A DNA stretch of 64,000 nt, taken from an uncultured Solirubrobacteraceae bacterium (lineage in GTDB: Bacteria; Actinomycetota; Thermoleophilia; Solirubrobacterales; Solirubrobacteraceae). The notes beneath the pieces were generated by a model. That model was not told where the DNA came from, did no database searches, and saw only the letters and a program-made list of their open reading frames with translations. Positions 1,862-35,388 of this stretch are shown here, piece after piece (the first letter of the stretch is position 1; the number at the start of each line of letters is the position of its first letter). Made by a program: the position numbers and the translations under genes. The DNA lies in the NCBI GenBank assembly GCA_963710665.1, contig CAVQBC010000005.1, forward strand, positions 158,370 through 222,369. Direction: 5' to 3'.

Positions 1862-2638
1862 ATGTCGTCCCTGATCGCCGCCCACCGCGGGCTGATCGCC
1901 CTCTCCTCGCGCGAGGTCGCGCGCGTCCTCAAGCTGTGGACGCAGACGGTCGCCGCGCCGATCATCTCCAGCGCGCTGTTCATCCTCGTGTTCGGCCTGT
2001 CGCTCGGCGGGCGCATCCGCGAGGTCCACGGGGTGCCCTACGAGCAGTTCATCGTGCCTGGGCTGATCGCGATGGGCATGGCCCAGGCGGCCTACGCGAA
2101 CAACTCCTCGAGCGTCTTCCAGGCCCGCTTCGACCGCTACCTCAACGACGTGCTCGCCGCGCCGATGCGCGGCTGGGAGGTCAACCTCGGCCTCAACCTC
2201 GGGGGCGTGGTGCGCGCGCTGCTGATCGGCGGCGGGCTGTTCGCGGTCGCGGTGCCGCTCACCGGCGTGCCGGTGCGCGAGCCCCTCGTGCTCGTCCTCT
2301 CCATCGTGCTGCTGCTGGCGCTGTTCTGCTCGTTCGGCGTCGTGGTCGGGGTGTACGCCGAGTCGTGGGACCAGTCGGCGTTCGTGACCAACCTCGTGAT
2401 CCTGCCGCTGTCGTTCCTGGGCGGCGTCTTCTACTCGATCGACTCGCTGCCCTCGCCGTGGCAGGAGATCTCGCACGCCAACCCGATCTTCTATCTGATC
2501 AACGCGGTGCGGGCCGGCTTCTTGGGGACGGCGGACGTGTCGGTCGCCCTCTCGCTGGCGGTGACCGCGGTGATCGCGGCCGCGTCCGTCGCCTGGAGCG
2601 TGTGGCTGTTCGCCACCGGGCGGCGGCTGAAGCCCTAG
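1862..2638 (+). CDS. ABC-2 type transporter permease
   Basis: 258 aa with six hydrophobic segments and a typical ABC-2 N-terminus (SREVARVLKLWTQTVAAPIISSALFILVFG). Probable partner of the ATPase at 160-939. Confidence 0.85.
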   Translation: MSSLIAAHRGLIALSSREVARVLKLWTQTVAAPIISSALFILVFGLSLGGRIREVHGVPYEQFIVPGLIAMGMAQAAYANNSSSVFQARFDRYLNDVLAAPMRGWEVNLGLNLGGVVRALLIGGGLFAVAVPLTGVPVREPLVLVLSIVLLLALFCSFGVVVGVYAESWDQSAFVTNLVILPLSFLGGVFYSIDSLPSPWQEISHANPIFYLINAVRAGFLGTADVSVALSLAVTAVIAAASVAWSVWLFATGRRLKP

Positions 2639-3494
2639 GCGGTCCCAGGTCGGCGAGCGCGGCGATGATCCGCCCGGCGGTGGCGGCCATCCGCCCGCCG
2701 GCGTCGGCAGCGGGCTCGTAGGCCGTGACGGCGGCCGCGGCGACCTCGAAGCGGTCGCCGACGGCGGCGAGCGCATCGAGCACCTGGCCGGCGCTCAGCC
2801 CGCCGGGCGCCGCGTAGCGGTTGGCGATCCCCTCCGCGGGGTCGAGCGCGTCGAGGTCGACGTGCAGGTAGACCCGGCCGACCCGGCCGCGCAGGTCGTC
2901 GAGCGCGGCGGCGAGGCCCGCGGCCGAGCACGCGCCGGCGGGCAGCGCCGCGATCCCCGAGCCGCCGAGGCGCTCGCGCTCGTGCGGCTCGAGGTCGCGG
3001 ACGGCCGCGAGCACGACGTCGCGCTCGGGGACCGGCGCGAGGCCGGGCACCGTGGCGCGCAGCGCCGGCCATCCGCGGCCGGTGAGCAGGGCGAGGCCCA
3101 TGGCGTCGAGCGACCCCGAGCGCGAGTCCTCCGGCGTGTCGAGGTCGGCGTGGGCGTCGAGCCAGACGATCCCGAGCCCGTCGGCCCCGACGCCCGCGAC
3201 CGTCCCGAGGCAGCTGTTGCAGTCGCCGGCGAGCACGAGCGGGAACGCGGCCTCGGCGACCGCGTCCCGCACGAGGCCGGCGATCGCGCGCGCGACCGCG
3301 AAGACCCGCGCCGCCTCGGGCGCGCCGGCGTCGGCGGGGCCGGCGACGCGCAGCGACGCCGGGCGCCCGGGGCGGGCGAGCGCGTCCGGGAGCCCGCCCG
3401 CCTCGAGCAGCCGCCCCGGGCCGCGCCCGCGGTCGACCCCGGCCAGCCCGTCGTGGTGCGGCGAGGCGATCAGCCGCAGCTCCCGGCGCCCCAT
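2499..3494 (-). CDS. arginase/agmatinase/formimidoylglutamase family hydrolase (3' end uncertain)
   Basis: Ureohydrolase metal-binding motifs are present: WLDAHADLDTPE, GSLDAMGLA and YLHVDLDALDP. The last ~45 aa are Arg-rich and overlap the convergent permease gene by 140 nt. Confidence 0.75.
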   Translation of the reverse strand: MGRRELRLIASPHHDGLAGVDRGRGPGRLLEAGGLPDALARPGRPASLRVAGPADAGAPEAARVFAVARAIAGLVRDAVAEAAFPLVLAGDCNSCLGTVAGVGADGLGIVWLDAHADLDTPEDSRSGSLDAMGLALLTGRGWPALRATVPGLAPVPERDVVLAAVRDLEPHERERLGGSGIAALPAGACSAAGLAAALDDLRGRVGRVYLHVDLDALDPAEGIANRYAAPGGLSAGQVLDALAAVGDRFEVAAAAVTAYEPAADAGGRMAATAGRIIAALADLGPPRASAAARWRTATRSRRRTRPRSPRSPPARGRPTRPPSPRSRPAPR

Positions 3495-3545: not shown

Positions 3546-4553
3546 CTACTCCCGCCCGTCGAGCCACTCGCGCATGGAGATCGGGCGCTCCGAGTACTCG
3601 CCGGTCTCGAGCTCCCGCCGCAGCTCGTCGAGCATCCCGAAGCGCTCGGCGACGACGTTGTGCTGGTGGATCGTCTCGAGGTTCTCCTGGCGGGCGGAGA
3701 CGAAGTGGCGGTCGGTGAGATGCCCGAAGGCCTCGACCACGCCGCGCACCATCTCGCGCACGCAGTCCTCGACGAAGCGCGGGCGCCGGTGGGCCTTCTC
3801 GACCACCAGGCCCTCGTCGGAGCGCTTCATGAGCTCGTAGATCTCCGACGACATCGAGGACTCGACGATCTCGAGCAGCGTGAGCGCGTTGATGTCCGTC
3901 TCGCAGTTCTCGGGGCAGCCGATGTACAGCGTGCCGAGCCCGCGCTGGTTGTGGGTCGCCACGGGGACCGCGGCGAGGATGCGGCCGATCTCCTCCTCGG
4001 AGAAGCCGTCCTCGAGCAGCCGCTCGCGCGAGCGCGCCGCGACGAGCGTCTGCGCGCACGGGCACGCCGTCATCCCCTGCGCGGTCACGCCGCTCAGCCG
4101 GCGCGTGCCGGCGGCCGACGCGACGGCGACGCCGTGCAGCGAGTAGATCTCCTGGGTGAGGATGCCCGACTCGGGCGCCGGCTTGTGCTCCGGGTAGCGC
4201 GCCTCGATGCGCACCTCCGCCCGGCGGGCGCCCTGCCGGTCGCGGACCTTCTCGGCGATGTGCTGCGCGAGCGTCTCGGCGCGGAAGCTCGACTCTCCGA
4301 GCACCACCTCGCCGATCGCGTCGTTGATGACCTCCTCGAACCGCGACATATGGGCCCCCTTCTGCTGGGGCCCGAGGTCGACGAAGCAGTCCAGGCGCGC
4401 CGAATAGAGCTGCTCGGTGCCGTTCTCGGAGATGCGGATGACCTTCTCGACATCGGTGACGCCGACCCGCGAGAGCGAGACCTGGAGGGTCGGCAGCTGG
4501 GACTGGACGTCCTCGACGGCGAAGGTGGTGGGGGTTCGGTCGGACGTTGGCAT
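3546..4553 (-). CDS. folE2: GTP cyclohydrolase FolE2/MptA family (type IB)
   Basis: Only the C-terminal 335 aa of the 570-aa ORF look real, starting at ATG 4551-4553 (MPTSDRT). Family motifs present: EDVQS...VGV, GMTACPCAQ and ATHNQRG. Confidence 0.85.
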   Translation of the reverse strand: MPTSDRTPTTFAVEDVQSQLPTLQVSLSRVGVTDVEKVIRISENGTEQLYSARLDCFVDLGPQQKGAHMSRFEEVINDAIGEVVLGESSFRAETLAQHIAEKVRDRQGARRAEVRIEARYPEHKPAPESGILTQEIYSLHGVAVASAAGTRRLSGVTAQGMTACPCAQTLVAARSRERLLEDGFSEEEIGRILAAVPVATHNQRGLGTLYIGCPENCETDINALTLLEIVESSMSSEIYELMKRSDEGLVVEKAHRRPRFVEDCVREMVRGVVEAFGHLTDRHFVSARQENLETIHQHNVVAERFGMLDELRRELETGEYSERPISMREWLDGRE

Positions 4554-4755: not shown

Positions 4756-5946
<1,191 letters not shown>

Positions 5947-5967
5947 CGCCGGCGGCGCAAACGCCGT

Positions 5968-6007
5968 CCAGACGCCCCGACCGGCCCACGCCGGCCGGGG
6001 CGTCTGG
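5968..6007. terminator. bidirectional hairpin between the convergent sigma and GAF-regulator genes
   Basis: Perfect 12-bp inverted repeat, CCAGACGCCCCG (5968-5979) and CGGGGCGTCTGG (5996-6007), with a 16-nt loop. Confidence 0.55.
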
Positions 6008-6025
6008 CCGTCAGTCCCGGGTCGC

Positions 6026-7393
6026 TCAGGCTTCGACCGGCGGGCGCAGCCGGTTCTCGATGCGCTCGCGCGCCTCGATGATCAGCGGCGCCTTGGAGCG
6101 CTCGAGGAGGGGACCCGGGTGGAGCTCGGCGGCGGCCTCCTCCTCGCCCTCGTCGAGCAGGCGCTCGACGTCGAGGAAGTCCGCCTCGACGTCGGCGACG
6201 AGCCGGTACGGGTCCGCCATGAGCAGGCAGCCGAGCAGCTTGCGCAGGCGCGACATCTCGGCGCGGACGGACACGCTCTTGGCGTTGGAGCCGTAGATCT
6301 GCGTCGCCAGGTCCTTGCCGCTCATCCCCTCGGGATTCAGCGCGAGCAGCGTGAGGATCTCGCTGTGGCGCGGGCTCAGCTCGACGGTGCCGCCGCCCTG
6401 CGAGAGCGTGGCGCGCCGGCGGCCGAGCCCCTCCAGCCGGAGGGCGGCCTTGGGCGGCTCGCTCGAGCTGCCGACCTTCCACACGATCGAGGCCTGGCCG
6501 CTGTCGAGCGGCTCGGCGACCGCGCCGACGCCGGAGGACAGCGTGAAGCGTCCGCCCTCGGGTGGGACGTCGATGTGGTCTCCGAGCCAGCCCGGCGGGC
6601 TCGAGACCACCACGCGCCCGGACTTGTCGACCAGCCCGCTCGCCTGCTTGGAGCCGCGGGTCACGAGCGCGAGGTAGCGGGCGCGGTGATGCTCGTCCTC
6701 GCGCGCGGCCTCGAGCGCCAGGTGGCTCTCGGCGGCGCGCGCGATCGCGGTGATCAGCGAGAGGCTGTGAGGGTGGGCGGTCCGGAAGCTGCCCGACAGG
6801 TTGACCGCGCCGAGGAGCCTGCCGGTGGCCGGATCGTGGATCGGCGCCGCGGCGCACGTCCAGCCGTGGAGCATGCTGCAGAAGTGCTCGGCGGAGAACA
6901 CCTGCACGGGGTGGTCGAGCACCAGCGTGGTGCCCACGGCATTGGTCCCGGCGGCGACCTCGCTGCACAGCCCGCCCGGGAGGAAGTGGGCGATGGCGGC
7001 CGCCTCGAGCATCTTGGGATGCCCGTCGGCCCAGAGCAGGAGGCCGCTGGCGTCGCTGAGCACGACCAGGTGCCGTGCGTCATCGGCGACGTCGCCGAGC
7101 ATGCTCTGCAGCAGCGGCAGGACCCGGGAGAGCGGATGCGTCGCGAACCGGTCCGCCGCCTCTGACTCGCTGAGCATCCGCGGCACCGGCCGCGCCGGGT
7201 CGACACCGGCGCTCGCGCATCGCATCCAGGAGTCGAGGACGACCTCGCGCACGATGGCGCGGCCGTCCTGCGACTCGGCGAGCATCTCGGCCGTCACCTG
7301 GCCGCTCAGGACGAGGTCCTGGACCTTGCGGAGCAGCCGGGCCCGCTTCAGCGGGTCACCGTCTATGGGAGCGCCAAGCCACTGGCCGGCCAC
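6026..7393 (-). CDS. GAF-domain transcriptional regulator with C-terminal DNA-binding (winged-helix-like) domain
   Basis: The real gene is the C-terminal 455 aa of the 688-aa ORF. GTG at 7393 is preceded by AAGGAGAG. GAF-like core: HLVVLSDASGLLLW...AAGTNAVGTTL...CAAAPIHD. C-terminal segment: LSPRHSEILTLLALNPEGMSGKDLA...RAEMSRLRKLLG. Confidence 0.7.
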   Translation of the reverse strand: MAGQWLGAPIDGDPLKRARLLRKVQDLVLSGQVTAEMLAESQDGRAIVREVVLDSWMRCASAGVDPARPVPRMLSESEAADRFATHPLSRVLPLLQSMLGDVADDARHLVVLSDASGLLLWADGHPKMLEAAAIAHFLPGGLCSEVAAGTNAVGTTLVLDHPVQVFSAEHFCSMLHGWTCAAAPIHDPATGRLLGAVNLSGSFRTAHPHSLSLITAIARAAESHLALEAAREDEHHRARYLALVTRGSKQASGLVDKSGRVVVSSPPGWLGDHIDVPPEGGRFTLSSGVGAVAEPLDSGQASIVWKVGSSSEPPKAALRLEGLGRRRATLSQGGGTVELSPRHSEILTLLALNPEGMSGKDLATQIYGSNAKSVSVRAEMSRLRKLLGCLLMADPYRLVADVEADFLDVERLLDEGEEEAAAELHPGPLLERSKAPLIIEARERIENRLRPPVEA

Positions 7394-7545
7394 GGATCGT
7401 CTCTCCTTGTGCTGCGCTGCACGTCTCCTCCGTCCTCGCCTATTTTCCAGGCACTCGCGCGCAGCAAACCGGATCCGCACGCGGCATCGACCGGAAACAT
7501 GACCGCTGCGCTCCCACGCCCCGCGGCGGTCGCGTCGGGCTGCGC

Positions 7546-8058
7546 CTAGGCCTCGACACCGCCGGCGAACGGGTGCCTTGCGGCGGGTTCCTCCGCCACC
7601 ACGGTGTCCGCGCTCGGCTCGTTCGCGAGCGCGCGGGCGATCGACTCCTTGGTGGCGGCGTAGTTGTAGTCGAAGATCTTCTTGTCGTCCGTCGCCTCCC
7701 AGTGGATGAAGATCCCCACGATCAAGCAGAGGTCGTCGGCGTCCTGCGCGCTGAGGACGCCCTCGCGGACCGAGTCGACCACGGCGCGCGCCACCGCGGC
7801 CTGGGCGGGGCCGAACATCTGCAGGGCCTGCTTCTCGCCCTTGATCGTGACCTTGTTGGAGATCACCGTGTCGGGCTTGCACGGAAGGTTGGGGGCCACC
7901 ACCGCGAGGAGGTTCGTGTGCCCCTCCTTCTGGTTGACCAGCGAGCTCGCGAACGCGTGACCGGCGGGCCCGTCCTTCGGCCCGATCAGCAGGTCGACGT
8001 GGGCGACCTCGGCGCCGTCTCCGACGAGTGACTCTCCGACCAGCAGTGACCTCGGCAT
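7546..8058 (-). CDS. fae: formaldehyde-activating enzyme (5,6,7,8-tetrahydromethanopterin hydro-lyase family)
   Basis: 170 aa from ATG 8058 with GGAGGG upstream. [28 protein letters not shown]...[13 protein letters not shown]...[10 protein letters not shown]...VGIFIHWEA...HPFA matches the Methylobacterium Fae sequence as I recall it, along its whole length. Confidence 0.85.
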
Positions 8059-8193
8059 TCGCTGACCCTCCTGCTCGGGCGATGCCCTCCACATCCCACG
8101 CAACCGCGACCCACGCGGCGCGAGGGGTCGGCCGACCCTACCCACTGGTTGCGCCACTGGCAAGGGATTCGCGCAATTTGCCAGGTTCCGGCC

Positions 8194-9657
8194 CTAGCCC
8201 ACCCGCCGCGCCGGCCTGAGCACGGTGAGCCTGCCGGCGCCGCCCCCGCCGGCCCCGGCCGCGCCGGAGACCACGGCCAGGTAATCCACGCCGCCGATCG
8301 TGTAGACGATCGGCGCCGACGCGTAGCCGGTGTCGAACCGCCGCCGCCAGGCGATCCGGCCGTCGCCGGCGTCGAAGGCGTACAGCGTGCCCGCGGTGTC
8401 GCCCGCGAACACCAGGCCACCCGCGGTGGCGGTCGCGCCGCCGAGCATCGGGGCGTCGACGCACTGCCGCCAGCGCACGCGGCCGCGCTCGAGGTCGATC
8501 GCCGCGAACGTGCCGGCGGGCCGCTCCGCGCCGGTGGCGCCCGTCCCGCCTGGGACCGGCGGGGGCCCGGACACGTACGCCGCGCCGGACCTCGGGCTCA
8601 AGGCCACGGGGGCGGCCGACGACCCCGCGGGGACGCCGGGACAGCGCCGTGCCCGGTCCTCGGGGGTGGGCACCGGGCGGTAGAGCGGGCGCCCCGAGCG
8701 CGCGCTGAGGGCGAGGAAGCGGCCGCCCAGGCCGGCCTGGCCGACCGCGCGCACGCGGCGGCCGTTGGCCTTCGTCTCGAAGATCACCACCGCCGAGCCG
8801 GCGCCGTGGTCCCACGGCTCGTGGTGCAGCCAGTCGACCTCGCCCGTGCGCGCGCGCAGCGCGAGCAGCCCGGCCGGCGAGCGCCCCGCGCGGCGCGGGC
8901 CGGGCGCAGCCCCGCTGGGCGGGCCGCCGGTGCCGGCGTAGAGGATGCCGCGGGTCGTGTCGATCGTCGGCGGTGCCCACACGCCGCCGGTGCGCCGCCG
9001 CCACTCCTCCTCGCCGGTCTCTCCGTCGAACGCGGCCACGAACCCGCGCGCGCCGTCGTCGTCGCGCGTACCGGCCGCGAACGCGACGCCGTCCCACACG
9101 GTCGGCGCGGCCGTGCAGCGGGCGCCGGCGTCCGCGACCCGCGTCCGCCACAGCCGGTGCCCGGTCGCCTCGTCGAGGGCGTGCAGCCGGCAGTCCAGGG
9201 TGAGCGCGTAGACCTTGCCGTCGGCGACCGCCACGGCGCGGTCGGCCGGGAGCGGCACGCCCTGCTCCCCGCGGCGCGACGGGCGGGCGACGTGTCGCCA
9301 GACCAGTCGCCCGGTGGCGGCGTCGAGCGCCAGGACCTCGTCGGCGGGGGTCGTCACGTACATCCGCCGGCCGACCACCACCGGGTGGGTCGCGCGGCCC
9401 GGCGCCCCGCGTCCGGGCCCGCGCCGCCACGCGACCTCGAGTCCGGCCACGGTCGAGGCGCGGATCCGGTCGGCGGGGCTGAAGCGCGTGTTGTCGGCGG
9501 TCTTGCCGAACAGCGGCCAGTCCCCGCCGGAGTGCGAGCCTCCGCGCGCGCCCACGACCGCGACGACGGCGCCGGCCACCACCAGGGTGCCGACGGCGAT
9601 CAGGGCGATCAGGCGGCTGCTCATCGCGCCCCACCGGCCGGGAGCGCGACTGGTCAC
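8194..9657 (-). CDS. PQQ-dependent dehydrogenase-like beta-propeller protein with N-terminal membrane anchor
   Basis: N-terminal TM MSSRLIALIAVGTLVVAGAVVAVVG, then DWPLFGKTADNTRFSP and repeated A.D..TG...W propeller motifs, as in quinoprotein alcohol dehydrogenases. Short (~475-487 aa) and lacks the vicinal Cys-Cys. GTG 9657 overlaps the pqqE stop (GTGA); an alternative ATG is at 9624. Confidence 0.7.
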   Translation of the reverse strand: MTSRAPGRWGAMSSRLIALIAVGTLVVAGAVVAVVGARGGSHSGGDWPLFGKTADNTRFSPADRIRASTVAGLEVAWRRGPGRGAPGRATHPVVVGRRMYVTTPADEVLALDAATGRLVWRHVARPSRRGEQGVPLPADRAVAVADGKVYALTLDCRLHALDEATGHRLWRTRVADAGARCTAAPTVWDGVAFAAGTRDDDGARGFVAAFDGETGEEEWRRRTGGVWAPPTIDTTRGILYAGTGGPPSGAAPGPRRAGRSPAGLLALRARTGEVDWLHHEPWDHGAGSAVVIFETKANGRRVRAVGQAGLGGRFLALSARSGRPLYRPVPTPEDRARRCPGVPAGSSAAPVALSPRSGAAYVSGPPPVPGGTGATGAERPAGTFAAIDLERGRVRWRQCVDAPMLGGATATAGGLVFAGDTAGTLYAFDAGDGRIAWRRRFDTGYASAPIVYTIGGVDYLAVVSGAAGAGGGGAGRLTVLRPARRVG

Positions 9658-10775
9658 CGCGGGCCGGGTACTCCGTCCGGCCGCAGCGTGCGATAGACGA
9701 GCGGCGTGTCGCCGTTGCCGGCGGAGTCACGCTCGCGCGCGTCGACGATCATGTCGTGGTGCGGCGACAGCCGGCACACCGGGTCCGCGTTGGTCGGGTC
9801 GCCGGTGAGCAGCATCGCCTGGCAGCGGCAGCCGCCGTAGTCGACCTCCTGGCGGCCGAGCGGGCAGCTCGCGCACGGCTCCTTCATCCACCCGGTGCCG
9901 CGGAAGGCGTTGAACGCACCCGACTCCTCCCAGATCCACTCGAGGGAGCGCTCGCGCACGTTGTCGAACTCGAGGCCGGGGATCACCGTGGCCGCGTGGC
10001 ATGGCATCGCGTCGCCGCTCGGCGCCACCACGATCGCGTGGCGCCCCCAGCCGCCGCTGCACGTCTTCGGCAGGTCCTCGTAGTAGTCGGGGAGGACGTA
10101 GAGGATCTCCATCCGCGGGCCCAGCCGCTGCCGGAACTCCTCGACGACCCGCTCGGCGCGCTCGAGCTGCTCGCGGGTCGGCATGAGCGCCGCGCGGTTG
10201 GGCATCGCCCAGCCGTAGTACTGCGTGTTGGCGAGCTCGACCCGCTCGGCGCCGAGCTCCTCCGACAGCGCGAGGATCTCGTCGATGCGGTCGAGGTTCT
10301 GGCGATGCATGACGAAGTTCATCGTGAGCGGGAACCCGAGCTCGCGCGCGAGGCGCGCCGCCTCGAGCTTGCGCTCGAACGAGCGCGTCCCCGCCATGCG
10401 GTCCGACTCCTCCGCGCGGCTGTCCTGGAGCGAGACCTGCACGTGGTCGAGCCCGGCCTCGCGCAGCGCCTCCGCCCGCGCGCGCGTGAACGAGAGCGCC
10501 GCCGTGACGAGCGTCGAGTACAGCCCCGCCGACCGCGCGGCCGCCGTCAGCTCGACGATGTCGGGGCGGGCCATCGGCTCGCCGCCCGTGAGCCCGAGCT
10601 GCATCACGCCGAGCGCCCGCGCCTCGCGGAACACGCGCGTCCAGTCCTCGGTGGAGAGCTCGTCCTTGTAGTGGGCGTCCCCGATCGTCAGCGGGTTCGA
10701 GCAGTACGGGCAGTGCAGCGGGCAGCGGTAGGTCAGCTCCGCGACGAGCGTGAAGGGCTTCTCAGAGAACGTCAC
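9654..10775 (-). CDS. pqqE: PQQ biosynthesis radical SAM protein PqqE
   Basis: Radical SAM motif CPLHCPYC and C-terminal SPASM cysteines (CSGGWG...CHA...CASCP...CRCQ). I prefer GTG 10775, which overlaps the pqqD stop by 14 nt; the ORF-track ATG at 10832 is an alternative. Confidence 0.9.
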   Translation of the reverse strand: MTFSEKPFTLVAELTYRCPLHCPYCSNPLTIGDAHYKDELSTEDWTRVFREARALGVMQLGLTGGEPMARPDIVELTAAARSAGLYSTLVTAALSFTRARAEALREAGLDHVQVSLQDSRAEESDRMAGTRSFERKLEAARLARELGFPLTMNFVMHRQNLDRIDEILALSEELGAERVELANTQYYGWAMPNRAALMPTREQLERAERVVEEFRQRLGPRMEILYVLPDYYEDLPKTCSGGWGRHAIVVAPSGDAMPCHAATVIPGLEFDNVRERSLEWIWEESGAFNAFRGTGWMKEPCASCPLGRQEVDYGGCRCQAMLLTGDPTNADPVCRLSPHHDMIVDARERDSAGNGDTPLVYRTLRPDGVPGPR

Positions 10776-11046
10776 GGACGAGCCCCCTCTCGGCGAGCGC
10801 CACCAGCAGCTCGCGTACGTCGTCGCCGACATCTGCCCCGCCGTAGCGCTCGCCGAGCTCCGCCACGATCGTGCCGACCGTCCGCTCGCCGTCGCAGAGC
10901 TCCAGCACGGCGCTCGCGGTGTCGTTGAGCGCGACCGCCCCTTCGGGGACGAGCAGCACGCGGCGCTCGCGCACGTCGTCGTAGTCGAGGCGCGTGCCGC
11001 GCGCGAGGTGCGGCCGGGCGTCGTCGGAGACCGGGGCCGAGCTCAC
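10762..11046 (-). CDS. pqqD: PQQ biosynthesis peptide chaperone PqqD
   Basis: 94 aa from GTG 11046, overlapping the pqqC stop (GTGA). Sequence LLVPEGAVALNDTASAVLELCDGERTVGTIVAEL; size and position are typical of PqqD. Confidence 0.85.
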   Translation of the reverse strand: MSSAPVSDDARPHLARGTRLDYDDVRERRVLLVPEGAVALNDTASAVLELCDGERTVGTIVAELGERYGGADVGDDVRELLVALAERGLVRDVL

Positions 11047-11771
11047 GGTCGTGCGGCCGGTGGGCGCGTCTCGCCCCGCTCGATCGCGTCGAGCTGGGCC
11101 CACAGCAGGTCGCACTTGAACGTCAGCGCCTCGATCGCCCGCTCCTGGTCGGCCCGGGTGGTGCAGTAGGTCGTGACGAGGTCGAGCGCGTGGCCGGCGT
11201 CGCGCGGCGCCTGCTGCAGCCGATGGCGGAAGTAGTCGAAGCCGGCCGGGTCGATCCACGGGTAGTGCTCCTCGAGCGCCGCGAGCCGGGCGCGCATCGC
11301 GTCGGGGCCGAAGAGCTCGGTGAGCGACGACGCGACGGCCTCGATCCACGGCTTCTGCCGGCAGAAGTTGACGTAGGCGTCGACCGCGAAGCGCACGCCG
11401 GGGAGCAGCCGGCGCAGGGAGACGACCTCCTCGCGCTCGAGCCCGACCGCCTCGGCGAGCCGCAGCCAGGCCTCGGTCCCGCCCGGGTCGTCCCCGGCGC
11501 CGTCGTGATCGGTGATGCGCCGGATCCACTGCCGCCGGACGTCCTGGTGCGGGCAGTTGGAGAGCACCGCGGCGTCCTTGAGCGGGATCGCGAGCTGGTA
11601 GTAGAAGCGGTTCGCCGCCCACCGCTGGAGCTCCTCGCGCGAGAGCTCGCCCGCGTTCATGCGCCGGTGGAAGGGGTGGAGGTGGTGGTAGCGCTCGCCT
11701 TGCGCGCGCAGCTCCGCGGCCAGCTCCTCCGCCGTCCACAGGGTCGTTCCTGGTTCCGCCACCTGCGCCAC
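11043..11771 (-). CDS. pqqC: pyrroloquinoline-quinone synthase PqqC
   Basis: YHHLHPFHRRMNAGELSREELQRWAANRFYYQ...LKDAAVLSNCP; 242 aa, which is the PqqC size. Confidence 0.9.
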   Translation of the reverse strand: MAQVAEPGTTLWTAEELAAELRAQGERYHHLHPFHRRMNAGELSREELQRWAANRFYYQLAIPLKDAAVLSNCPHQDVRRQWIRRITDHDGAGDDPGGTEAWLRLAEAVGLEREEVVSLRRLLPGVRFAVDAYVNFCRQKPWIEAVASSLTELFGPDAMRARLAALEEHYPWIDPAGFDYFRHRLQQAPRDAGHALDLVTTYCTTRADQERAIEALTFKCDLLWAQLDAIERGETRPPAARP

Positions 11772-11780
11772 CCGGGCCTC

Positions 11781-12695
11781 CTAGAGCTCGACGAGCATCC
11801 CGTCGTAGGCGATCTCGATCCCTGCGGATTCCACGGCGCGTCGCTCCGCGGAGTCCTCCAGGAGGATCGGGTTCGTGTTGTTGATATGTACCAGAATCGT
11901 CCTGGGGCCCTTGAGCCGTGCGAGCCGCTCGAGGCTGCCGTCCGGCCCGGAGAGCGGCATGTGGCCCATCTCGAGCGCCGTGCGCCCGCCGATCCCCGCC
12001 GCCGCGAGCTCGTCGTCGCGCCAGAACGTGCCGTCCACGAGGATGCAGTCGCAGGCCTCGAGCCGGCTCATCATGGCGTCGTCGAGGCGCTCGATCACGG
12101 GTACGTACATCGCCCGGCCGCCGGTCGCGGGGTCGCGCAGCGCGAGCGCCACGGCGTCCTCCCCGGAGGCCGCGGAGTCGCGCACGAAGCGCGGCGGGTC
12201 GCCGCCGACCGCGAGCGGCACGACCTCGAGCGGCGCGGACGGCCCGCCGGCGCCGAGCGAGAGGCCGCGGCCGGGCTCGAGCGGGTGCCAGCTCACGCCG
12301 CTGTAGCCGTCGAGGACCCGCAGGAGGGGGTTGTCGGTCGTGAGCGCGCGCCGGACCGCCTCGGTGCTCCAGAGCTGCAGCGGCTCGGCGCCCTCGCGCA
12401 GGATCAGCAGGCCGGTCGTGTGGTCGATCTCGGCGTCGGTCAGCACCACGCCGGCGATCGGGCTCGAGCGGACGCCGTCCGCGGGCGCCTCGCGCAGCAG
12501 CTCGAGCTGCTGGCGGACGTCAGGCGAGGCGTTGACGAGGAACCACGGCCCGTCGCTCGCCCGCACGGCGAGCGAGGACTGGGAGCGCGGGACGGCCGGG
12601 GCGCCCCCCTCGCGCACGGCCCGGCAGGTCGGGCAGGAGCAGTTCCACTGCGGGAATCCTCCGCCCGCGGCCGACCCCAGGACGCGGATGATCAT
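11781..12695 (-). CDS. pqqB: PQQ biosynthesis protein PqqB (metallo-beta-lactamase fold)
   Basis: MIIRVLGSAAGGGFPQWNCSCPTCR is the characteristic PqqB N-terminus; 304 aa. Confidence 0.9.
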   Translation of the reverse strand: MIIRVLGSAAGGGFPQWNCSCPTCRAVREGGAPAVPRSQSSLAVRASDGPWFLVNASPDVRQQLELLREAPADGVRSSPIAGVVLTDAEIDHTTGLLILREGAEPLQLWSTEAVRRALTTDNPLLRVLDGYSGVSWHPLEPGRGLSLGAGGPSAPLEVVPLAVGGDPPRFVRDSAASGEDAVALALRDPATGGRAMYVPVIERLDDAMMSRLEACDCILVDGTFWRDDELAAAGIGGRTALEMGHMPLSGPDGSLERLARLKGPRTILVHINNTNPILLEDSAERRAVESAGIEIAYDGMLVEL

Positions 12696-12708
12696 CGTCC
12701 GTACCGAT

Positions 12709-12739
12709 GAGAAAGGGCCCGCCGGCGGCGGGCCCTCTC
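12709..12739 (-). terminator. intercistronic hairpin (attenuator/partial terminator) between pqqA and pqqB
   Basis: Perfect 9-bp GC stem, GGGCCCGCC (12715-12723) and GGCGGGCCC (12727-12735), with a 3-nt loop. On the transcribed minus strand it is followed by TTTCTC. Confidence 0.5.
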
Positions 12740-12764
12740 GAAGAAGATCTTGGCCAGCGCTGCC

Positions 12765-12839
12765 TTAGCGCCGGGCGACGTACAGGGTGACCTCGAGGGA
12801 CCCCTCGATGATCTCGAACTCAGGCTTGAACCAGGTCAT
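12765..12839 (-). CDS. pqqA: PQQ precursor peptide PqqA (24 aa)
   Basis: Minus strand, ATG 12839 to TAA 12765, encodes MTWFKPEFEIIEGSLEVTLYVARR with the conserved E-x3-Y (EVTLY). AGGTGA Shine-Dalgarno sits upstream. Too short to appear in the ORF track. Confidence 0.85.
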   Translation of the reverse strand: MTWFKPEFEIIEGSLEVTLYVARR

Positions 12840-12949
12840 TCATCACCTTCCCGTCGATGGCACAACGTTCCCGTCAGGCGCACAACATGCCAAAACCGGA
12901 CGGCATGACGCGGATCGCCCCGGGGGCTGCACGAGGGTAGCATCGCGCG

Positions 12950-14461
12950 ATGCGCGTGGAGGTGGTGGGAGGCCCGCCGGAGGCGATCGAAGCCGACGTC
13001 CTGGGCGTCGGCGTCGTCGAGCCCGCCACGGAGCCCGGCGGGGCGGTCGCCGCGATCGACCGGCCCCTCGGCGGCCGGCTCGCCGACCTGGCGCGCGAGG
13101 GCGAGCTCACGGCGACGGGCGGCTCGGTGCTCCTGCTGCACGTCGATGGGGGCCCGCCGCCACCCCTCGCGGCCTCGCGGGTGGCGGCGGCCGGCCTCGG
13201 CGCCGCCGAGCGCCTCGACGCCGACGCGATCCGCACCGCGGCGGCCGCTGCCGCGCGCACGGCGGCGCGCTTCGGCGGGTCGCTCGCGTGGGTCGTCGAC
13301 GAGGCGCTGCCGCTGCCGGCGGCCGAGCAGGCGCGCGCCGCCGTCGACGGGGCGTCGCTGGGGACCTATGACCCCGGGCGCTGGAAGAGCGGGCGCTCGG
13401 CCGGCAAGGACCTGCGGCGGCTCGTGATCGCGGGCGGCGGCCTCGACGGCGTCGCCGAGGCGGCCACCCGCGCGGGCGTCGTGGCGCGCTGGACCACGCG
13501 CGCGCGTGACTTCGTGAACGCGCCGGCCAACGAGATGACGCCGACTGCGCTCGGAGAGCGGGCCGAGGAGATCGCGCGCGAGGTGCCCGCGCTCACGGTC
13601 GAGGCGCTCGGCCCGGAGGCGATCGAACGACTGGGCCTGACGGCGTTCGCCGCCGTCGCGCGGGGCAGCGACGAGCCGGCCCGGCTCCTCGTCGCGCGCT
13701 ACGACCCGCCGGCCCCCGCGCGCGACGACCTCGTCCTCGGCCTCGTCGGCAAGGCGATCACGTTCGACTCCGGCGGCCTCTCGCTCAAGAGCCCGGAGCG
13801 GATGACGTGGATGAAGGTCGACATGGCCGGCGGGGCCGCCGTCGTGTGCGGCCTCGGCGCGATCGCCGAGCTCGGCCTGCCGGTGCGGGCGCTCGGCGTG
13901 GTCGCGGCGTGCGAGAACATGCCCGGCCCGCGCTCCTACCGCCCCGGCGACATCATCCGGACGTTCAACGGCACGACGGTCGAGGTCACGAACACCGACG
14001 CCGAGGGCCGCATCGTGCTCGCGGACGCGCTCGCGCACGCGCGCGCGCTCGGGGCCACCCACCTCGTCGATCTCGCCACGCTGACCGGCGGCGCCCTCGG
14101 CGACGTCTACGCCGGGCTGTTCGCGCGCGGCGACGACTGGCGCGACGAGCTGCTCGCGGCCGCCGACGCCAGCGGCGACCACGCCTGGCCATGGCCACTG
14201 CATCGCCGCTTCCGCCGCCTGCTGGACTCGGACGTCGCGGACCTCAAGAACTCCGCCTCAGGCCGGGCGGCCACCGCCGCGGCGGCAGCGTTCCTGTCCG
14301 AGTTCGCGGGCGACGGGCCGTGGGCGCACGTCGACATCGGCGGTACGGCCTTCCTCGAGCGCAGCCGGGGCGACTACCTGAGCCAGCGCGGGGGCACCGG
14401 CGCGGGCGTGCGGCTCGTGGCCGAGCTGGGGAGGCGGCTGGCGTCAGCCCCGCCGGGCTGA
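12950..14461 (+). CDS. pepA: leucyl aminopeptidase (M17 family)
   Basis: M17 motifs VGKAITFDSGGLSLK, MKVDMAGGAAV and NTDAEGRIVLADAL. Confidence 0.9.
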   Translation: MRVEVVGGPPEAIEADVLGVGVVEPATEPGGAVAAIDRPLGGRLADLAREGELTATGGSVLLLHVDGGPPPPLAASRVAAAGLGAAERLDADAIRTAAAAAARTAARFGGSLAWVVDEALPLPAAEQARAAVDGASLGTYDPGRWKSGRSAGKDLRRLVIAGGGLDGVAEAATRAGVVARWTTRARDFVNAPANEMTPTALGERAEEIAREVPALTVEALGPEAIERLGLTAFAAVARGSDEPARLLVARYDPPAPARDDLVLGLVGKAITFDSGGLSLKSPERMTWMKVDMAGGAAVVCGLGAIAELGLPVRALGVVAACENMPGPRSYRPGDIIRTFNGTTVEVTNTDAEGRIVLADALAHARALGATHLVDLATLTGGALGDVYAGLFARGDDWRDELLAAADASGDHAWPWPLHRRFRRLLDSDVADLKNSASGRAATAAAAAFLSEFAGDGPWAHVDIGGTAFLERSRGDYLSQRGGTGAGVRLVAELGRRLASAPPG

Positions 14462-15133
14462 GCGGCGGTGCAGCGGGGCCCGCCCGCGGCGGCCGGCCGG
14501 CTCGAGCACTTCGAGCGCGAGCAGGCAGGCCGCGGCGCGCTGGGCGAGGCGCAGCGGGGCGCCCATCGCGCCCGCCAGGTCGCGCGTGGTGAACGGCTCG
14601 CCGTCCAGCGCCGCGGGGAGCAGCTTTGCGACGTCGTCGGGGCCCGCCAGCACCACGCGGTCGAGCACCTCGACGAGCCGGCGCTCGCCGGGGTCGCGCA
14701 GGTACCGCCGGCCGCGCACCGGCGCCGGCGCGCGCACGTGGTCCTCGCGGCACAGCAGCACCTCGATCGTCAGGTGCGGATGGCCGAGCAGCGTCGGGAA
14801 CGACACCAGCCCGTCGAAGATCGCGGTCGCGCCGTCGCGCTTCGGAGACCGCCGCGCCGAGAGCAGCTCGCCGCCCTCGCCGACGCGGACGATCCGCCGC
14901 TCGGCGGCCACCGGGTGGACGATCCGCATCCGGTGGCGGTCGAGCAGCGCGTCGAGCTTCGCGCGCAGCGGCGAGAACCCGCCGGTCTGCAGCTCGACAA
15001 GCTCGCCGTCCGCCCGCACGACGTCGATCACGTAGCCGTCCACCGCGGTCTCGAGCACGTCGCCGGGCCGCGCGAGCCACGCCTTCAGCGCCGCGTGCAG
15101 CGGTCCCTCGCGCAGCACGCCGATCCCCGACAC
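14444..15133 (-). CDS. conserved hypothetical protein, PD-(D/E)xK nuclease-like N-terminus plus C-terminal wHTH-like region
   Basis: 229 aa. GPLHAALKAWLARPGD...VDGYVIDVVRADGELVELQTGGF resembles a widespread uncharacterised family with a D...E-x-Q/K nuclease-like core. The assignment is from memory of that family. Confidence 0.55.
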   Translation of the reverse strand: MSGIGVLREGPLHAALKAWLARPGDVLETAVDGYVIDVVRADGELVELQTGGFSPLRAKLDALLDRHRMRIVHPVAAERRIVRVGEGGELLSARRSPKRDGATAIFDGLVSFPTLLGHPHLTIEVLLCREDHVRAPAPVRGRRYLRDPGERRLVEVLDRVVLAGPDDVAKLLPAALDGEPFTTRDLAGAMGAPLRLAQRAAACLLALEVLEPAGRRGRAPLHRRSARRG

Positions 15134-15200: not shown

Positions 15201-15282
15201 GGTGGGGTTCCCGAGCGGTCAAAGGGGACGGGCTGTAAACCCGTTGGCTCTGCCTTCGCAGGTTCGAATCCTGCCCCCACCA
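15201..15282 (+). tRNA. tRNA-Tyr: tRNA-Tyr (anticodon GTA), class II with long variable arm
   Basis: Cloverleaf read by hand: acceptor GGTGGGG/CCCCACC, anticodon stem ACGGG/CCCGT, loop CTGTAAA, T-arm GCAGG-TTCGAAT-CCTGC. Very close to E. coli tRNA-Tyr as I recall it. CCA is not encoded. Confidence 0.9.
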
Positions 15283-29117: not shown

Positions 29118-30211
29118 GCACGACCGAGCGGGCTCCGGCCACGACCCGCGAGCGCGCCGGCGCGCGCCAGGCCGCCGGCGGGCTGCGCGAGCGCCTGCGC
29201 TACTCGGAGAACCTGCGCACCTACATCCCGCTGCTGGTGGCCATCATCGGCCTGAGCCTCTACGCCGCCGCCAACTCGGACCTCTACCTCACGCTCGACA
29301 ACATCCAGGTCCTGCTGTCGAGCGTCGCGGTGCTCGGCCTCATCACGGTCGGGATGACGCTGATCATGATCGCCGGGCAGCTCGACCTGTCGGTCGGGGC
29401 GGCCGCGACGCTCTCGAGCGTCATCGGCGCGCAGATGATCTCGGGCGGCAGCAGCACGGTGGTCGCCGTCCTCGTGATGCTCCTGCTGCCGATGGCGATC
29501 GGCTGCCTGGTGGGCATCCTCGTGGTGAGCACGGGCGTGCAGCCGTTCATCGTGACCCTCGGGCTGCTGAGCGTGCTGCAGTCGATCTCGCTGATCCAGA
29601 CCGGCCAGCGCCCGATCTCCATCGGCTTCAACCTGTCCGAGATCGACACGACGATCGTCCTCGGGATCCCGCTCCCGTTCTGGATGTTCGTGATCGCGCT
29701 GCTGGTCGGGAGCCTGATCCTGCACTTCTCCCGGCTCGGGCGCAACGCCTTCGCGGTGGGGTCCAACGAGGAGGCGGCGTTCCTGTCGGGCGTCGCGGTC
29801 GGTCGCGTGAAGATCATCCTGTTCTCGCTCAACGGGCTGCTGGTCGGCCTCGGCGGCCTGCTGCTCCTCTCGCGCCTGGGGGCCGGCGACGCGGCGTCCG
29901 GCCAGGGCCTCGAGCTCGACGCCATCGCGGCGGCCGTCATCGGCGGCGCCTCGCTGCTCGGCGGCCGCGGCTCGATGTTCGGGACGTTCCTCGGCGTGAT
30001 GCTGCTCGGCGTGATCGCCAACAGCCTGACCCTGCTCGACGTGTCGTCCTTCTACCAGCGTCTCGTCCTCGGGCTGCTCCTCATGTTCGCGGTGACGGCG
30101 ACCGCGATCGCGGAGAAGCGCAGGGGGTCGGCGGAGTCCGTCGCCGACGTCCTGCGGCGCGTCACCACTGGTCGCCGAACCATGCCCTCGGGCGGAAAGG
30201 AGCCCAGCTGA
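29114..30211 (+). CDS. ABC transporter permease (RbsC/branched-type, CUT2)
   Basis: About 10 TM segments. The start overlaps the ATPase stop (ATGA). Confidence 0.9.
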   Translation: MSTTERAPATTRERAGARQAAGGLRERLRYSENLRTYIPLLVAIIGLSLYAAANSDLYLTLDNIQVLLSSVAVLGLITVGMTLIMIAGQLDLSVGAAATLSSVIGAQMISGGSSTVVAVLVMLLLPMAIGCLVGILVVSTGVQPFIVTLGLLSVLQSISLIQTGQRPISIGFNLSEIDTTIVLGIPLPFWMFVIALLVGSLILHFSRLGRNAFAVGSNEEAAFLSGVAVGRVKIILFSLNGLLVGLGGLLLLSRLGAGDAASGQGLELDAIAAAVIGGASLLGGRGSMFGTFLGVMLLGVIANSLTLLDVSSFYQRLVLGLLLMFAVTATAIAEKRRGSAESVADVLRRVTTGRRTMPSGGKEPS

Positions 30212-32283: not shown

Positions 32284-32284
32284 C

Positions 32285-34127
32285 ATGGCAACCATCGAGA
32301 CGCCCCCCGGGCGGGCGAGCATCGACGCGGTCACGCTCGAGGTCATGCGCAACGGCTTCATCCAGGTGTGCGAAGAGGTCACGATCACGATGCTCAAGAC
32401 CGCGCACTCGGTGATCTTCAACGAGGGCAAGGACCTCTCCACCGGGGTGTTCGACCGCGACGGGCGGCTGATCGCGCAGGACAAGCAGGGCTGCCCGGTG
32501 CACATCGCCGCCATGCCGCAGTCCGTCAAGGCCGGCATCGCCCAGTACGGGATCGAGAACATGAACCCGGGCGACGTCTTCCTGATCAACGACTCCTACA
32601 GCGGCGGGACGCACCTGCCCGACGTCACGATCTTCGCGCCGGTGTTCTGGGAGGACGAGCTCGTCGGCTTCATCGGCAACCGCGGCCACCACACCGACGT
32701 CGGCGGCATGGCCGCCGGCTCGATGCCCGGCGACGCCACGGAGATGTACCAGGAGGGCCTGATCCTGCCCGCGGTGCGCATCTTCACGGCCGGCGAGCGC
32801 AACCGGGACGTGTGGAACATCATGCTCGCCAACGTCCGCCTGCCCGGGAACACCGAGGGCGACATCGCGGCGCAGATGGCCGGGGTCCAGACCGGGATGC
32901 GGCGCTTCCACTCGATGCTCGAGCGCTACGGCACGGAGGCGCTCCAGGCCGGGATCGACGAGATCATCGCCTACTCCGAGCGCCACATGCGCAGGGAGAT
33001 CGCGAAGATGCCGGACGGGACCTACCACTTCGCCGACTACATGGACACCGACGGCGTCACCGGCACGCCGGTGCGCATCGAGGTCACCGCGCGCAAGTCC
33101 GGGAGCGACATCGAGTTCGACTTCACCGGCACCGACCCGCAGGTCGGCGGCGCCGTGAACTGCGTCTTCAGCGTCACGCTCGCCTCCGTGTGGATCGGGA
33201 TGCTGATGGTCACCGACCCGGCGATCCATCCCAGCGAGGGGGCCTTCGCGCCGGTCACCGTGACCGCGCCCCTGGGCACCGTCGTGAACCCGCGCAAGCC
33301 GGCCTCGACCGTGAGCGGGCTGACCGAGACCTGCAACCGCATCATCGACATCGTCATCGGGGCGCTCTCCCCGGGCGTCCCCGACCGTGCGGTCGCCGGC
33401 GAGCTCGGCAGCTGCAACGTCTACACGCTGGGTGGCCGGGGCGCCGGCGACGACGGGCGAGCAGTGGGTCGCGATCCTCAACCCCAAGGGCGGCTGGGGC
33501 GGCATGGAGGCCAAGGACGGGTGGACCTGCATCCAGGACCCGCTCTCGAACTGCCGCTGCCAGCCGGCCGAGGCGCTCGAGAACGCCTTCCCGGTGCGCG
33601 TGCGCCAGTTCGCCCTGCGGACGGGCCCGGAGGGCGCCGGGCGCCATCGCGGCGGCTTCGGGATCGTGCGCGACATCGAGGTCACCGCGGACTGCGTGGT
33701 CTCCACCTGCCTGGACCGCAGCGTGATCGCGCCGTTCGGGCTCTTCGGCGGCGGCGACGGCGCGCCGAACCTGATGTACCTGCGCCGCAACGGCACCGAG
33801 ACCTGGGAGCCGCTCAACTCGCGGCAGTCGAACATGCCGCTCAAGACGGGCGACGTCGTGCGGATCGAGACCGCCATCGGCGGCGGGTTCGGCGACCCCC
33901 TCGAGCGACGCCCGGAGGACGTGGCGGACGACGTGGCCGACGAATACATCAGCCGCGAGGACGGGGAGACGGTCTACGGGGTCGTGCTCGACGACGCCCT
34001 CGGCGTCGACGAGGGCGCGACGGCCGCGTGCCGGGAAGAGCTGCGCTCCAACGGCGGCTCGCCCGAGCTGTCCCGGCCGCCGGCGGGCGTCGAGCCGCGC
34101 CGACCCGTCTTCGAGGCCGCCTCATGA
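32285..34127 (+). pseudogene. hydantoinase B/oxoprolinase family protein (HyuB-like) interrupted by a +1 frameshift
   Basis: The N-terminal part (DAVTLEVMRNGF...NDSYSGGTHLPD) is in the 32285 frame. The C-terminal part (EQWVAILNPKGGWGG...GGFGDPLERRPEDV) is in the 33387 frame. The junction is at GAC GAC GGG C GAG (33455-33458); removing one G restores DDGEQW. Confidence 0.8.
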
Positions 34128-35311: not shown

Positions 35312-35330
35312 GCGGTGAGCGGTGGTTTGT

Positions 35331-35355
35331 ATTCGGACAGCGAACATGACGTTCG
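35331..35355. promoter_or_regulatory. operator-like motif, site B (upstream of the Mo-hydroxylase operon)
   Basis: ATTCG-GACAG-CGAAC-ATGAC-GTTCG, followed by ACAAGCGG; 33 nt upstream of GTG 35389. Confidence 0.6.
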
Positions 35356-35388
35356 ACAAGCGGAAATGCCTGGAGTAGGGTCGCCGCC

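Follow-up and report, generated by a model that had tools for sequence, protein, structure and literature searches.

Does a Gram-positive bacterium that carries the genes for pyrroloquinoline quinone (PQQ) synthesis next to the gene for formaldehyde-activating enzyme (Fae) oxidize alcohols outside its cytoplasm and hand the product over to Fae? This question is raised by a 64,000-nt stretch of actinobacterial DNA (the window, with a G+C content of about 74%, to which all coordinates refer), where the minus strand from 6026 to 12839 holds, in that order, pqqA, a hairpin, pqqBCDE, the gene of a PQQ-type propeller protein, fae and the gene of a GAF-domain regulator. In textbook methylotrophy, PQQ dehydrogenases and the route from Fae through tetrahydromethanopterin (H4MPT) are placed in Gram-negative bacteria. 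A first-pass annotation of the DNA had proposed an active extracytoplasmic PQQ-dependent alcohol or C1 dehydrogenase that is wired to Fae. The proposal is supported only in part and its central idea is not, as PQQ and metal residues are lost from the propeller, the constraint on this gene is specifically relaxed, and fae has a promoter-like element of its own. What does stand is the joint presence, in an actinobacterial genome, of a complete PQQ pathway under selective constraint, a true Fae and a GAF regulator. By sequence identity the host is an uncultured member of the Solirubrobacterales (Thermoleophilia, Actinomycetota), a Gram-positive lineage, since the primary sigma factor is 87–88% identical to those of Ca. 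Solirubrobacter pratensis and a Solirubrobacteraceae metagenome-assembled genome (MAG), and the nearest named Fae sequences come from Solirubrobacterales and Conexibacter MAGs. The sigma factor also bears out the early view of a Gram-positive-type genome.

The reading that we favor, and consider moderately probable, is that of an accessory block for PQQ and Fae in which the propeller is a weakly constrained relic of a pqq-linked dehydrogenase. The cell would make PQQ, probably for quinoproteins encoded elsewhere, and Fae would condense formaldehyde with H4MPT in the cytoplasm, with a putative H4MPT supply from elsewhere in the genome and with the GAF regulator in control of fae. The exported propeller would no longer be a canonical metal-PQQ alcohol or methanol dehydrogenase and may now be either a weakly constrained relic without catalysis or a protein whose role has changed. 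Gene calls were taken from the listing of open reading frames (ORFs), from direct reading and from profile searches (NCBIfam equivalog cut-offs and Pfam).

The propeller protein: fold, active site and constraint

In its predicted structure the propeller has the 8-bladed PQQ-alcohol-dehydrogenase (PQQ-ADH) fold. For an AlphaFold model based on 39 homologues (pLDDT 80.3, pTM 0.85), the top 30 Foldseek matches are all PQQ alcohol or methanol dehydrogenases (MDHs) (E down to 3e-34, TMq 0.72–0.79), with quinohemoprotein ADHs, PedH, XoxF and MxaF among the neighbors. The closest sequence matches in the PDB are a XoxF1-type MDH and quinohemoprotein ADHs (E 4e-36 to 1e-33), and in sequence and structure together 7o6z, 1kv9, 1yiq, 6zcv, and 6dam match best. 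The blades are confidently modeled; the low-confidence loops include the Cys-Cys and Asn261 loops. The protein scores under the cut-off of the methanol/ethanol family (TIGR03075, 206 bits vs. 480), as it does for TIGR04528 (acido-empty-quinoprotein group A, 159 bits vs. 650), which is the second-best NCBIfam match without the propeller being a member, and for TIGR03074 (mGDH family, 116 bits vs. 833). The N-terminus consists of MSSR, 22 hydrophobic residues and VGA/R, and may serve either to anchor the protein or as a signal peptide that is cleaved off. A PQQ-type propeller with an extracytoplasmic signal, as first annotated, is supported by these data; of the single N-terminal membrane anchor, the one hydrophobic segment with a putative export or anchor function remains. 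Translation probably starts at ATG 9624, which is used by the gene callers and in the orthologue P0003. The GTG at 9657, on which the annotation had based a 4-nt overlap with pqqE, is a possible start, and the overlap with the pqqE stop codon (GTGA) is real in both the window and the orthologous locus L002.

The active site was read from an alignment with 38 homologues (36 besides P0002 and P0003) in MxaF numbering (Table 1); the roles of Glu55, Arg109, Glu177, Trp243, Asn261, Asp303, Asp305, Lys/Arg331, and Asn394-Trp are those that we assume from MxaF and XoxF structures. Canonical proteobacterial-type members of the alignment have all classical sites as well as the vicinal Cys-Cys, and the 36 other relatives keep the eight tabulated sites near-universally, with scattered single exceptions and with Asp305 in all of them. 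In the window the metal ligands (Glu177, Asn261, and Asp305) read Asp, Gly, and Gly. Among the PQQ contacts, Arg109 and Trp243 are retained, Glu55 has become Ala, Lys331 has become Leu, and the Asn394-Trp/Tyr pair is gone, with Ser-Ala in its place. Absence of PQQ-binding residues was what the first-pass annotation itself had named as fatal to an active enzyme, and the replacements at Glu55, Lys331, and Asn394-Trp/Tyr come close to that state. Two loops of about 17 and 20–35 residues are deleted in the window lineage. The members of the window clade (window, P0002, and P0003) differ from each other at exactly these sites, with the P0002 propeller 86–89% identical to that of the window; within the 14-member 90% cluster of the window, all 10 full-length members listed have the same residue state.

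Table 1. Residues at eight active-site positions of the propeller (MxaF numbering).
Site	Other relatives	Window and its 90% cluster	P0002	P0003
55	Glu	Ala	Ala	Glu
109	Arg	Arg	Arg	Arg
177	Glu/Asp	Asp	Glu	deleted
243	Trp/Tyr	Trp	Trp	Ser
261	Asn	Gly	Ala	Gly
303 (catalytic base)	Asp	Asp	Asp	Glu
305	Asp	Gly	Gly	Asn
331	Lys	Leu	Leu	Arg

The vicinal Cys-Cys is absent from the window propeller, as had been observed at first sight (the aligned segment is GVPLPADRAV). Its absence is not confined to this protein; it is a trait of a whole actinobacterial and Chloroflexota family with an otherwise intact lanthanide-type site. About 25 relatives (P0004 to P0082) from metagenomes and MAGs of Actinomycetota and Chloroflexota, which are 36–57% identical to the window protein, lack the cysteines and keep the other active-site residues, including the W-D-x-D lanthanide signature, with scattered single exceptions. 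On sequence grounds, the window propeller is shown to descend from this family of Cys-Cys-less, D-x-D-bearing PQQ-ADHs, of which no description was found in the searchable literature. Intact propellers of the family (loci L004, L005, L093, and L094) cluster with MoxR, DUF58, VWA, and MimR_N regulators; at L005 a small cytochrome c and a quinohemoprotein lie by the propeller, and there is no MimR_N regulator. Several intact propellers have lipoprotein signals, in which LAAC or LTAC, for instance, precedes GG.

Substitution rates single out the same gene. Between the window and L002 the propeller is 65% identical in amino acids, with a nonsynonymous rate (dN) of 0.233, a synonymous rate (dS) of 0.337 and a ratio (dN/dS, omega) of 0.69, compared to 88–98% identity, dN of 0.015–0.064 and dN/dS of 0.04–0.20 for six neighboring genes; dS is similar in all genes (0.20–0.39). 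The ratio is raised along the whole propeller gene (0.5–1.1 in 60-codon windows). As a control, three propeller paralogues of the intact relatives L004 and L093 give a dN/dS of 0.20–0.29, like their neighbors. The propeller gene of the window has a GC content of 79.8%, a GC2 of 0.65 and a share of Gly, Ala, Arg, and Pro (GARP) of 51.5%, vs. 29–39% in the neighboring genes and 39–41% in the closest intact relatives (P0004–P0009); this drift is the one expected when GC-biased mutation is weakly opposed. In the Illumina-assembled contig L088 (ENA ERZ27257244 k141_815533, L088:6654-8080) the propeller gene has a 1-nt deletion at nt 992, which splits it, and a 3-nt deletion at nt 1378; two ORFs of 136 and 341 aa are called in its place, and the neighboring genes are all intact. 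As judged from these comparisons, the constraint on the propeller is strongly relaxed, and specifically in that gene, the evolution of which is close to neutral.

Several observations weigh against a relic. Arg109, Trp243, and Asp303 are still present in the lineage of the window, and a rebuilt, non-canonical active site would be compatible with the sequence. The gene directly follows pqqE, possibly with translational coupling through the GTGA overlap, as expected of a PQQ user. L002 is the only orthologous locus with DNA at a useful divergence, and among near-identical strains (>98% identity) the dN/dS of the propeller is 0.27, a value based on few substitutions that is not distinguishable from that of the neighbors. 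The ORF is intact in most strains, and each of the 8 propeller indels that separate the window from L002 has a length divisible by three, for which the chance is about 1.5e-4. Because all eight indels are in frame, we read the propeller as a protein that is still made and held in frame, and from which the constraints that define a metal-PQQ dehydrogenase appear to be gone.

An active, novel extracytoplasmic PQQ alcohol or C1 dehydrogenase with an unconventional site, the formaldehyde from which is captured by the co-located Fae, would fit the retained Arg109, Trp243, and Asp303, the acidic residue at site 177 and the frame-preserving indels, as well as the pqqE-propeller-fae order that is conserved in several contigs, the export or anchor signal and the PQQ-ADH fold. 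The MoxR, DUF58, and VWA partners of the intact relatives, at L005 with a cytochrome c, suggest moreover that the wider family consists of working enzymes. We nevertheless consider such an enzyme unlikely for the window. Asn261, Asp305, Glu55, Lys331, and Asn394-Trp/Tyr are lost and the three clade members disagree there, the omega of 0.69 stands against 0.04–0.20 in the neighbors, the composition has drifted, one strain has a frameshift, the TIGR03075 score is far under its cut-off, and fae apparently has its own promoter. In addition, no predicted protein of the window contains a CxxCH motif, and no MoxR, XoxJ or further C1 gene is present among the 40 of 53 predicted window genes that were scanned, in agreement with the early remark that the window offers no cytochrome c or XoxJ partner.

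A propeller that is repurposed as a non-catalytic surface protein (a sensor or holder of PQQ or metal, or a BamB-like scaffold), with its fast evolution due to altered or diversifying selection, would fit the frame maintained across eight indels, and also the confidently modeled blades with variable loops, the residue state shared by the full-length cluster members listed, and the fact that two lineages at a dS of about 0.3 from each other have both kept the gene in the operon. There are precedents for non-catalytic PQQ-like proteins in the BamB matches and in the NCBIfam acido-empty-quinoprotein family. This explanation is improbable in our view, as omega is uniformly high instead of patchy and is nowhere clearly >1, the GARP-rich drift is what mutation pressure alone would give, and no partner or signaling domain is present.

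PQQ synthesis, Fae and the supply of H4MPT

Around the relic that we favor, the other genes of the operon are under normal constraint. PqqB to PqqE all exceed the NCBI equivalog cut-offs and follow in operon order on a PqqA with the E-x3-Y motif, and between the window and L002 they are 92–98% identical with dN/dS of 0.04–0.20 (pqqB 0.15, pqqC 0.20, pqqD 0.04, and pqqE 0.20). Scores, gene order and rates show pqqABCDE to be a complete predicted PQQ-biosynthesis operon under purifying selection. The pqqA product of L002 is MTWRKPEFEIVEGSLEVTLYVARR, and the gene has an AAGGTGA Shine-Dalgarno site. The hairpin between pqqA and pqqB is found in L002 with its stem kept and its loop varied, and, by analogy with known hairpins between pqqA and pqqB, is probably an attenuator or a transcript-stabilizing element. 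The 75-nt hairpin region folds at -33.8 kcal/mol with a z-score of only -1.5 vs. shuffles, an energy that is unexceptional for the base composition; support for the hairpin comes from conservation and not from energy. No M16 peptidase (the PqqF/G-type protease) was found in the window. A gene for an M17 leucyl aminopeptidase starts 110 nt from pqqA in the divergent direction; it accompanies the pqq genes within the accessory block, and it adjoins them in the L002 lineage too. As no pqqF-type protease is present, the aminopeptidase is a speculative candidate for the PqqA-processing peptidase.

Fae of the window aligns over 162 of 170 residues (residues 5–166) with Fae of Methylorubrum extorquens (1Y5Y; E 1e-61), keeps the AH-x-D segment (the equivalents of His22 and Asp24) and has a dN/dS of 0.16 vs. 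L002. Homology thus shows it to be an orthologue of the true H4MPT-dependent formaldehyde-activating enzyme, and not a distant paralogue, under apparent purifying selection. A place among the Fae2/Fae3 paralogues, or among the non-catalytic paralogues that the annotation had named, is set aside by the TIGR03126 score (242 vs. 118) and by the match to 1Y5Y. Upstream of fae, the element TTGCCA-N17-TAGGGT is conserved in L002 (where the second part reads TAAGGT) and in L087, and fae probably has its own promoter there, as indicated by this conservation and by the actinobacterial TANNNT pattern of the -10 box only; a scan of 5900–13000 with the E. coli-type promoter and terminator consensus reported no element, that of fae included. 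With a promoter-like element and a Shine-Dalgarno site of its own, co-transcription of fae with the pqq genes is not implied.

The regulator has a Pfam GAF domain, a weak Trans_reg_C match and similarity to DhaR at its N-terminus. It is 64% identical to a regulator encoded four genes from fae in a Conexibacter MAG (L092), within the H4MPT cluster there, and this similarity shows it to be the orthologue of the MimR_N/GAF regulator that flanks fae in that cluster.

No H4MPT genes were found among the 40 of 53 window genes scanned, nor in the 10 kb to the left of the window. The relatives are informative in this respect, as Fae proteins 80–82% identical to that of the window are encoded in a Solirubrobacterales MAG (L090) and in the Conexibacter MAG (L092). 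The L090 cluster (L090:284-15195) holds Mch (391 bits vs. a cut-off of 229), FhcC (266 vs. 131), FhcD (418 vs. 293), and FhcA (665 vs. 393), together with an FhcB-like gene, an MtdB-like Mpt_N gene, a dihydropteroate-synthase-like gene and further pterin-cluster genes. In L092:1-12816 Pfam annotation gives a similar H4MPT set, with no MtdB-like gene in the stretch read, and both clusters around Fae also contain ATP-grasp, pterin and CitG-like genes. Since H4MPT clusters occur in relatives of the same class, Fae is not out of place in the lineage of the window.

It may still be asked if the Fae of the window serves mere formaldehyde detoxification, or is a remnant, on a mobile block in a genome without H4MPT, so that the adjacency of pqq and fae is meaningless; this explanation overlaps with the others. 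The block is accessory, H4MPT genes are missing from the genes scanned and from the adjoining 10 kb, the MptA-like gene of the window belongs to the backbone (see below), and 12 MAGs with Fae and no other methylotrophy genes have been reported (Macey et al., 2024, PMC10994693). On the other hand, fae is under purifying selection and its product is strongly similar to the characterized enzyme, formaldehyde and H4MPT are the only known substrate pair of Fae, and relatives keep Fae in full H4MPT clusters with the same regulator family. We regard a Fae without H4MPT as doubtful and retain the model of a Fae that is supplied with H4MPT from elsewhere in the genome.

The Thermoleophilia thus appear, from these gene inventories, to hold both H4MPT-dependent formaldehyde oxidation and a PQQ-ADH system of a Gram-positive style that may depend on lanthanides. 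In the searchable open literature no description of PQQ, XoxF or H4MPT in Thermoleophilia was found. "Actinomycetes" are named in one line among the carriers of H4MPT genes (Chistoserdova, 2016, PMC5020050), Voutsinos et al. (2024, PMC10875860) state that one does not expect to find XoxF in MAGs of Gram-positive bacteria, and MAGs of Solirubrobacteraceae and Thermoleophilia were recovered from soil labeled with 13C-methanol (Macey et al., 2024, PMC10994693). A bolder proposal, to which we give little credence as a whole, is that Solirubrobacterales and other Actinomycetota have their own lanthanide- and PQQ-dependent oxidation of C1 compounds and alcohols (with Cys-Cys-less D-x-D propellers tethered as lipoproteins or by an anchor, MoxR/DUF58/VWA for maturation, cytochrome c, H4MPT/Fhc and MimR_N/GAF regulators), and that the window propeller has been converted to a non-catalytic protein for PQQ or metal handling or sensing that works with PQQ synthesis and Fae.

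The locus and its surroundings may be of interest beyond this genome. The window and its relatives indicate that soil Thermoleophilia carry PQQ synthesis genes, a true Fae in full H4MPT clusters and disulfide-less propellers with the lanthanide motif, and this abundant class may therefore have a larger share in the C1 and alcohol turnover of soil than is attributed to it. Specialists would be surprised by a Gram-positive class, the Thermoleophilia, with PQQ, lanthanide-type propellers and H4MPT. For annotation, the locus advises caution, as a gene in a pqq operon that public pipelines label alcohol, ethanol or glucose dehydrogenase can be an eroded and probably non-catalytic copy. The window propeller is at the same time a clean natural example of one gene that decays or changes its role in an otherwise constrained operon.

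Layout of the locus and its surroundings

The features of the locus are listed in Table 2. ORFs and profile scores confirm the gene order from pqqA to the regulator as first described, and the overlaps of 4 nt between pqqC and pqqD (GTGA) and of 14 nt between pqqD and pqqE, like the gaps of 135 nt before fae and 152 nt before the regulator gene, are exact. The same order is kept in the independent metagenome contigs L001, L002, and L086–L088, and near-identical copies of the window proteins are found on a 3.89-Mb ENA contig (ERZ25039588 contig_2037), identical ones on a 236-kb NCBI/ENA contig.

Table 2. Features of the pqq/fae locus and its flanks in the window.
Feature	Position	Strand	Description and evidence
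MptA/FolE2-type GTP cyclohydrolase	3546-4553	-	Backbone gene; TIGR00294 286 bits vs. cut-off 220
Primary sigma factor (RpoD/HrdB-type)	4756-5946	+	Left-hand backbone anchor; Pfam, NCBIfam
MimR_N + GAF + C-terminal winged-helix-like regulator	6026-7393	-	Pfam GAF, weak Trans_reg_C; precomputed MimR_N
fae	7546-8058	-	TIGR03126 242 bits vs. cut-off 118; own GGAGGG Shine-Dalgarno site
Promoter-like element 5' of fae	8135-8163	-	TTGCCA-N17-TAGGGT
PQQ-ADH-type propeller	8194-9624 (or start GTG 9657)	-	Pfam PF01011 163 bits vs. 26.7
pqqE	9654-10775	-	Radical SAM/SPASM; TIGR02109 520 bits vs. cut-off 381; CPLHCPYC motif
pqqD	10762-11046	-	TIGR03859 83 bits vs. cut-off 46
pqqC	11043-11771	-	TIGR02111 329 bits vs. 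cut-off 240
pqqB	11781-12695	-	TIGR02108 378 bits vs. cut-off 245
GC-rich hairpin	12711-12739	-	Between pqqA and pqqB; 13-bp stem, 3-nt loop, then UUUCUC
pqqA	12765-12839	-	24-aa PQQ precursor MTWFKPEFEIIEGSLEVTLYVARR; E-x3-Y motif
M17 leucyl aminopeptidase	12950-14461	+	Divergent from pqqA; Pfam and NCBIfam
DUF8091 protein	14444-15133	-	Final gene of accessory block; precomputed PF26351 in L001 and a JGI contig
tRNA-Tyr	15201-15282	+	Right-hand backbone anchor; ARAGORN, Rfam

By comparison with related contigs, the region 6026-15133 (about 9.2 kb) is an accessory block between the sigma-70 gene and tRNA-Tyr that holds the genes of the regulator, Fae, the propeller, PqqEDCBA, the M17 aminopeptidase and the DUF8091 protein. 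It is regarded as accessory because the contigs L095 (3.23 Mb) and L097 lack it between these two anchors; in L095 the M17 aminopeptidase and DUF8091 genes are both absent from this position as well. The sigma factor of L095 is 93% identical to that of the window, and in L095 and L097 tRNA-Tyr follows about 0.5 kb after sigma-70 and is 98–99% identical to the window copy. The backbone of both contigs consists of an ABC-2 permease, three further genes, an MptA/FolE2-like gene, sigma-70, DUF1801 and tRNA-Tyr. Signs of mobility were not seen, with no integrase and no flanking direct repeats at the block; the repeat output consists of GC-rich chance matches.

The GTP cyclohydrolase at 3546-4553 scores as archaeal-type MptA (286 vs. 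220) over FolE2 (149 bits vs. a cut-off of 215). As in-window support for H4MPT synthesis this gene was considered and rejected, as it is a backbone gene. It lies next to sigma-70 with 80% amino acid identity in L095, where the block is missing from this site, and its adjacency to fae is therefore incidental. Between the ABC-2 permease and the cyclohydrolase lies a gene of the arginase family (2499-3494, minus strand) that is absent or truncated in the near-identical strains L086, L087, and L088, a short segment that thus varies among strains. About 8 kb upstream of sigma-70, L095 and L097 (both at 1-1893) encode a 981-aa protein with PF07995 (glucose/sorbosone dehydrogenase, a PQQ-dependent family) and PKD, which hints at the use of PQQ-type enzymes of another fold in that clade.

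Further to the right, the region 30211-44087 contains two hydantoinase/oxoprolinase A+B pairs, the first B unit of which (32285-35311) reads as fused to an M20 peptidase in the ORF call, a three-subunit molybdopterin enzyme of the CoxMSL/xanthine-dehydrogenase type and IclR regulators; a creatininase gene follows at 44084-44878. It looks like a catabolic region for N-heterocycles or cyclic amides that is unrelated to the pqq/fae block. In the 681-aa ORF at 53081-55126 (plus strand), a CofD/YvcK-type 2-phospho-L-lactate transferase domain is confined to the N-terminal 200 residues and the rest matches no family, so the ORF is a fusion or was called too long. No Pfam match was obtained for ORFs at 44962-47157 (minus strand, 731 aa), 57260-58294 (plus strand, 344 aa), and 58311-59378 (plus strand, 355 aa). 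The coding signature of the first is strong (GC3 0.96); the other two owe their call to a GC3-based score only, which is lower for them.

Comparison with known systems

The Fae-H4MPT formaldehyde oxidation of M. extorquens and other Proteobacteria is the system to which the window Fae belongs as an apparent orthologue. In contrast to the proteobacterial systems, the host is an actinobacterium, fae is detached from the H4MPT genes and lies beside pqq on an accessory block, and the regulator is of the MimR_N/GAF type. With the canonical pqqABCDE(F) operons of Klebsiella, Methylorubrum, and Pseudomonas the window shares the A-B-C-D-E order, the C/D and D/E overlaps and the hairpin after pqqA. It differs from them in the lack of a pqqF/G (M16) protease gene, in place of which an M17 aminopeptidase gene is conserved divergently upstream of pqqA.

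The propeller has the predicted 8-bladed fold, the equivalents of Arg109, Trp243, and Asp303 and the export signal in common with the lanthanide-dependent XoxF, PedH, and ExaF and with type II quinohemoprotein ADHs, and its nearest intact relatives bear the W-D-x-D signature of the lanthanide enzymes. Compared to these enzymes it is about 100 residues shorter, has no Cys-Cys, carries the replacements Asn261Gly, Asp305Gly, Glu55Ala, and Lys331Leu, stays under the family cut-off and evolves at a dN/dS of 0.69, and its locus has none of the cytochrome c, XoxJ or MoxR partners of the XoxF/PedH/ExaF systems. The mGDH enzymes (glucose/quinate, TIGR03074) are likewise PQQ propellers without a vicinal disulfide and with an N-terminal tether to the cytoplasmic membrane; the window propeller differs in having one hydrophobic segment instead of five helices, and its sequence is clearly closer to the alcohol-dehydrogenase branch. 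The "empty" quinoproteins of TIGR04528 and BamB are propellers of the PQQ type in which a catalytic role of PQQ is presumed or known to be lacking. BamB differs from the window propeller as an outer-membrane assembly lipoprotein of diderm bacteria, and the TIGR04528 proteins occur in genomes without pqq genes, whereas the window propeller sits in a pqq operon. All parts of the locus come from known families, and what is new is their arrangement and the eroded propeller embedded in the operon.

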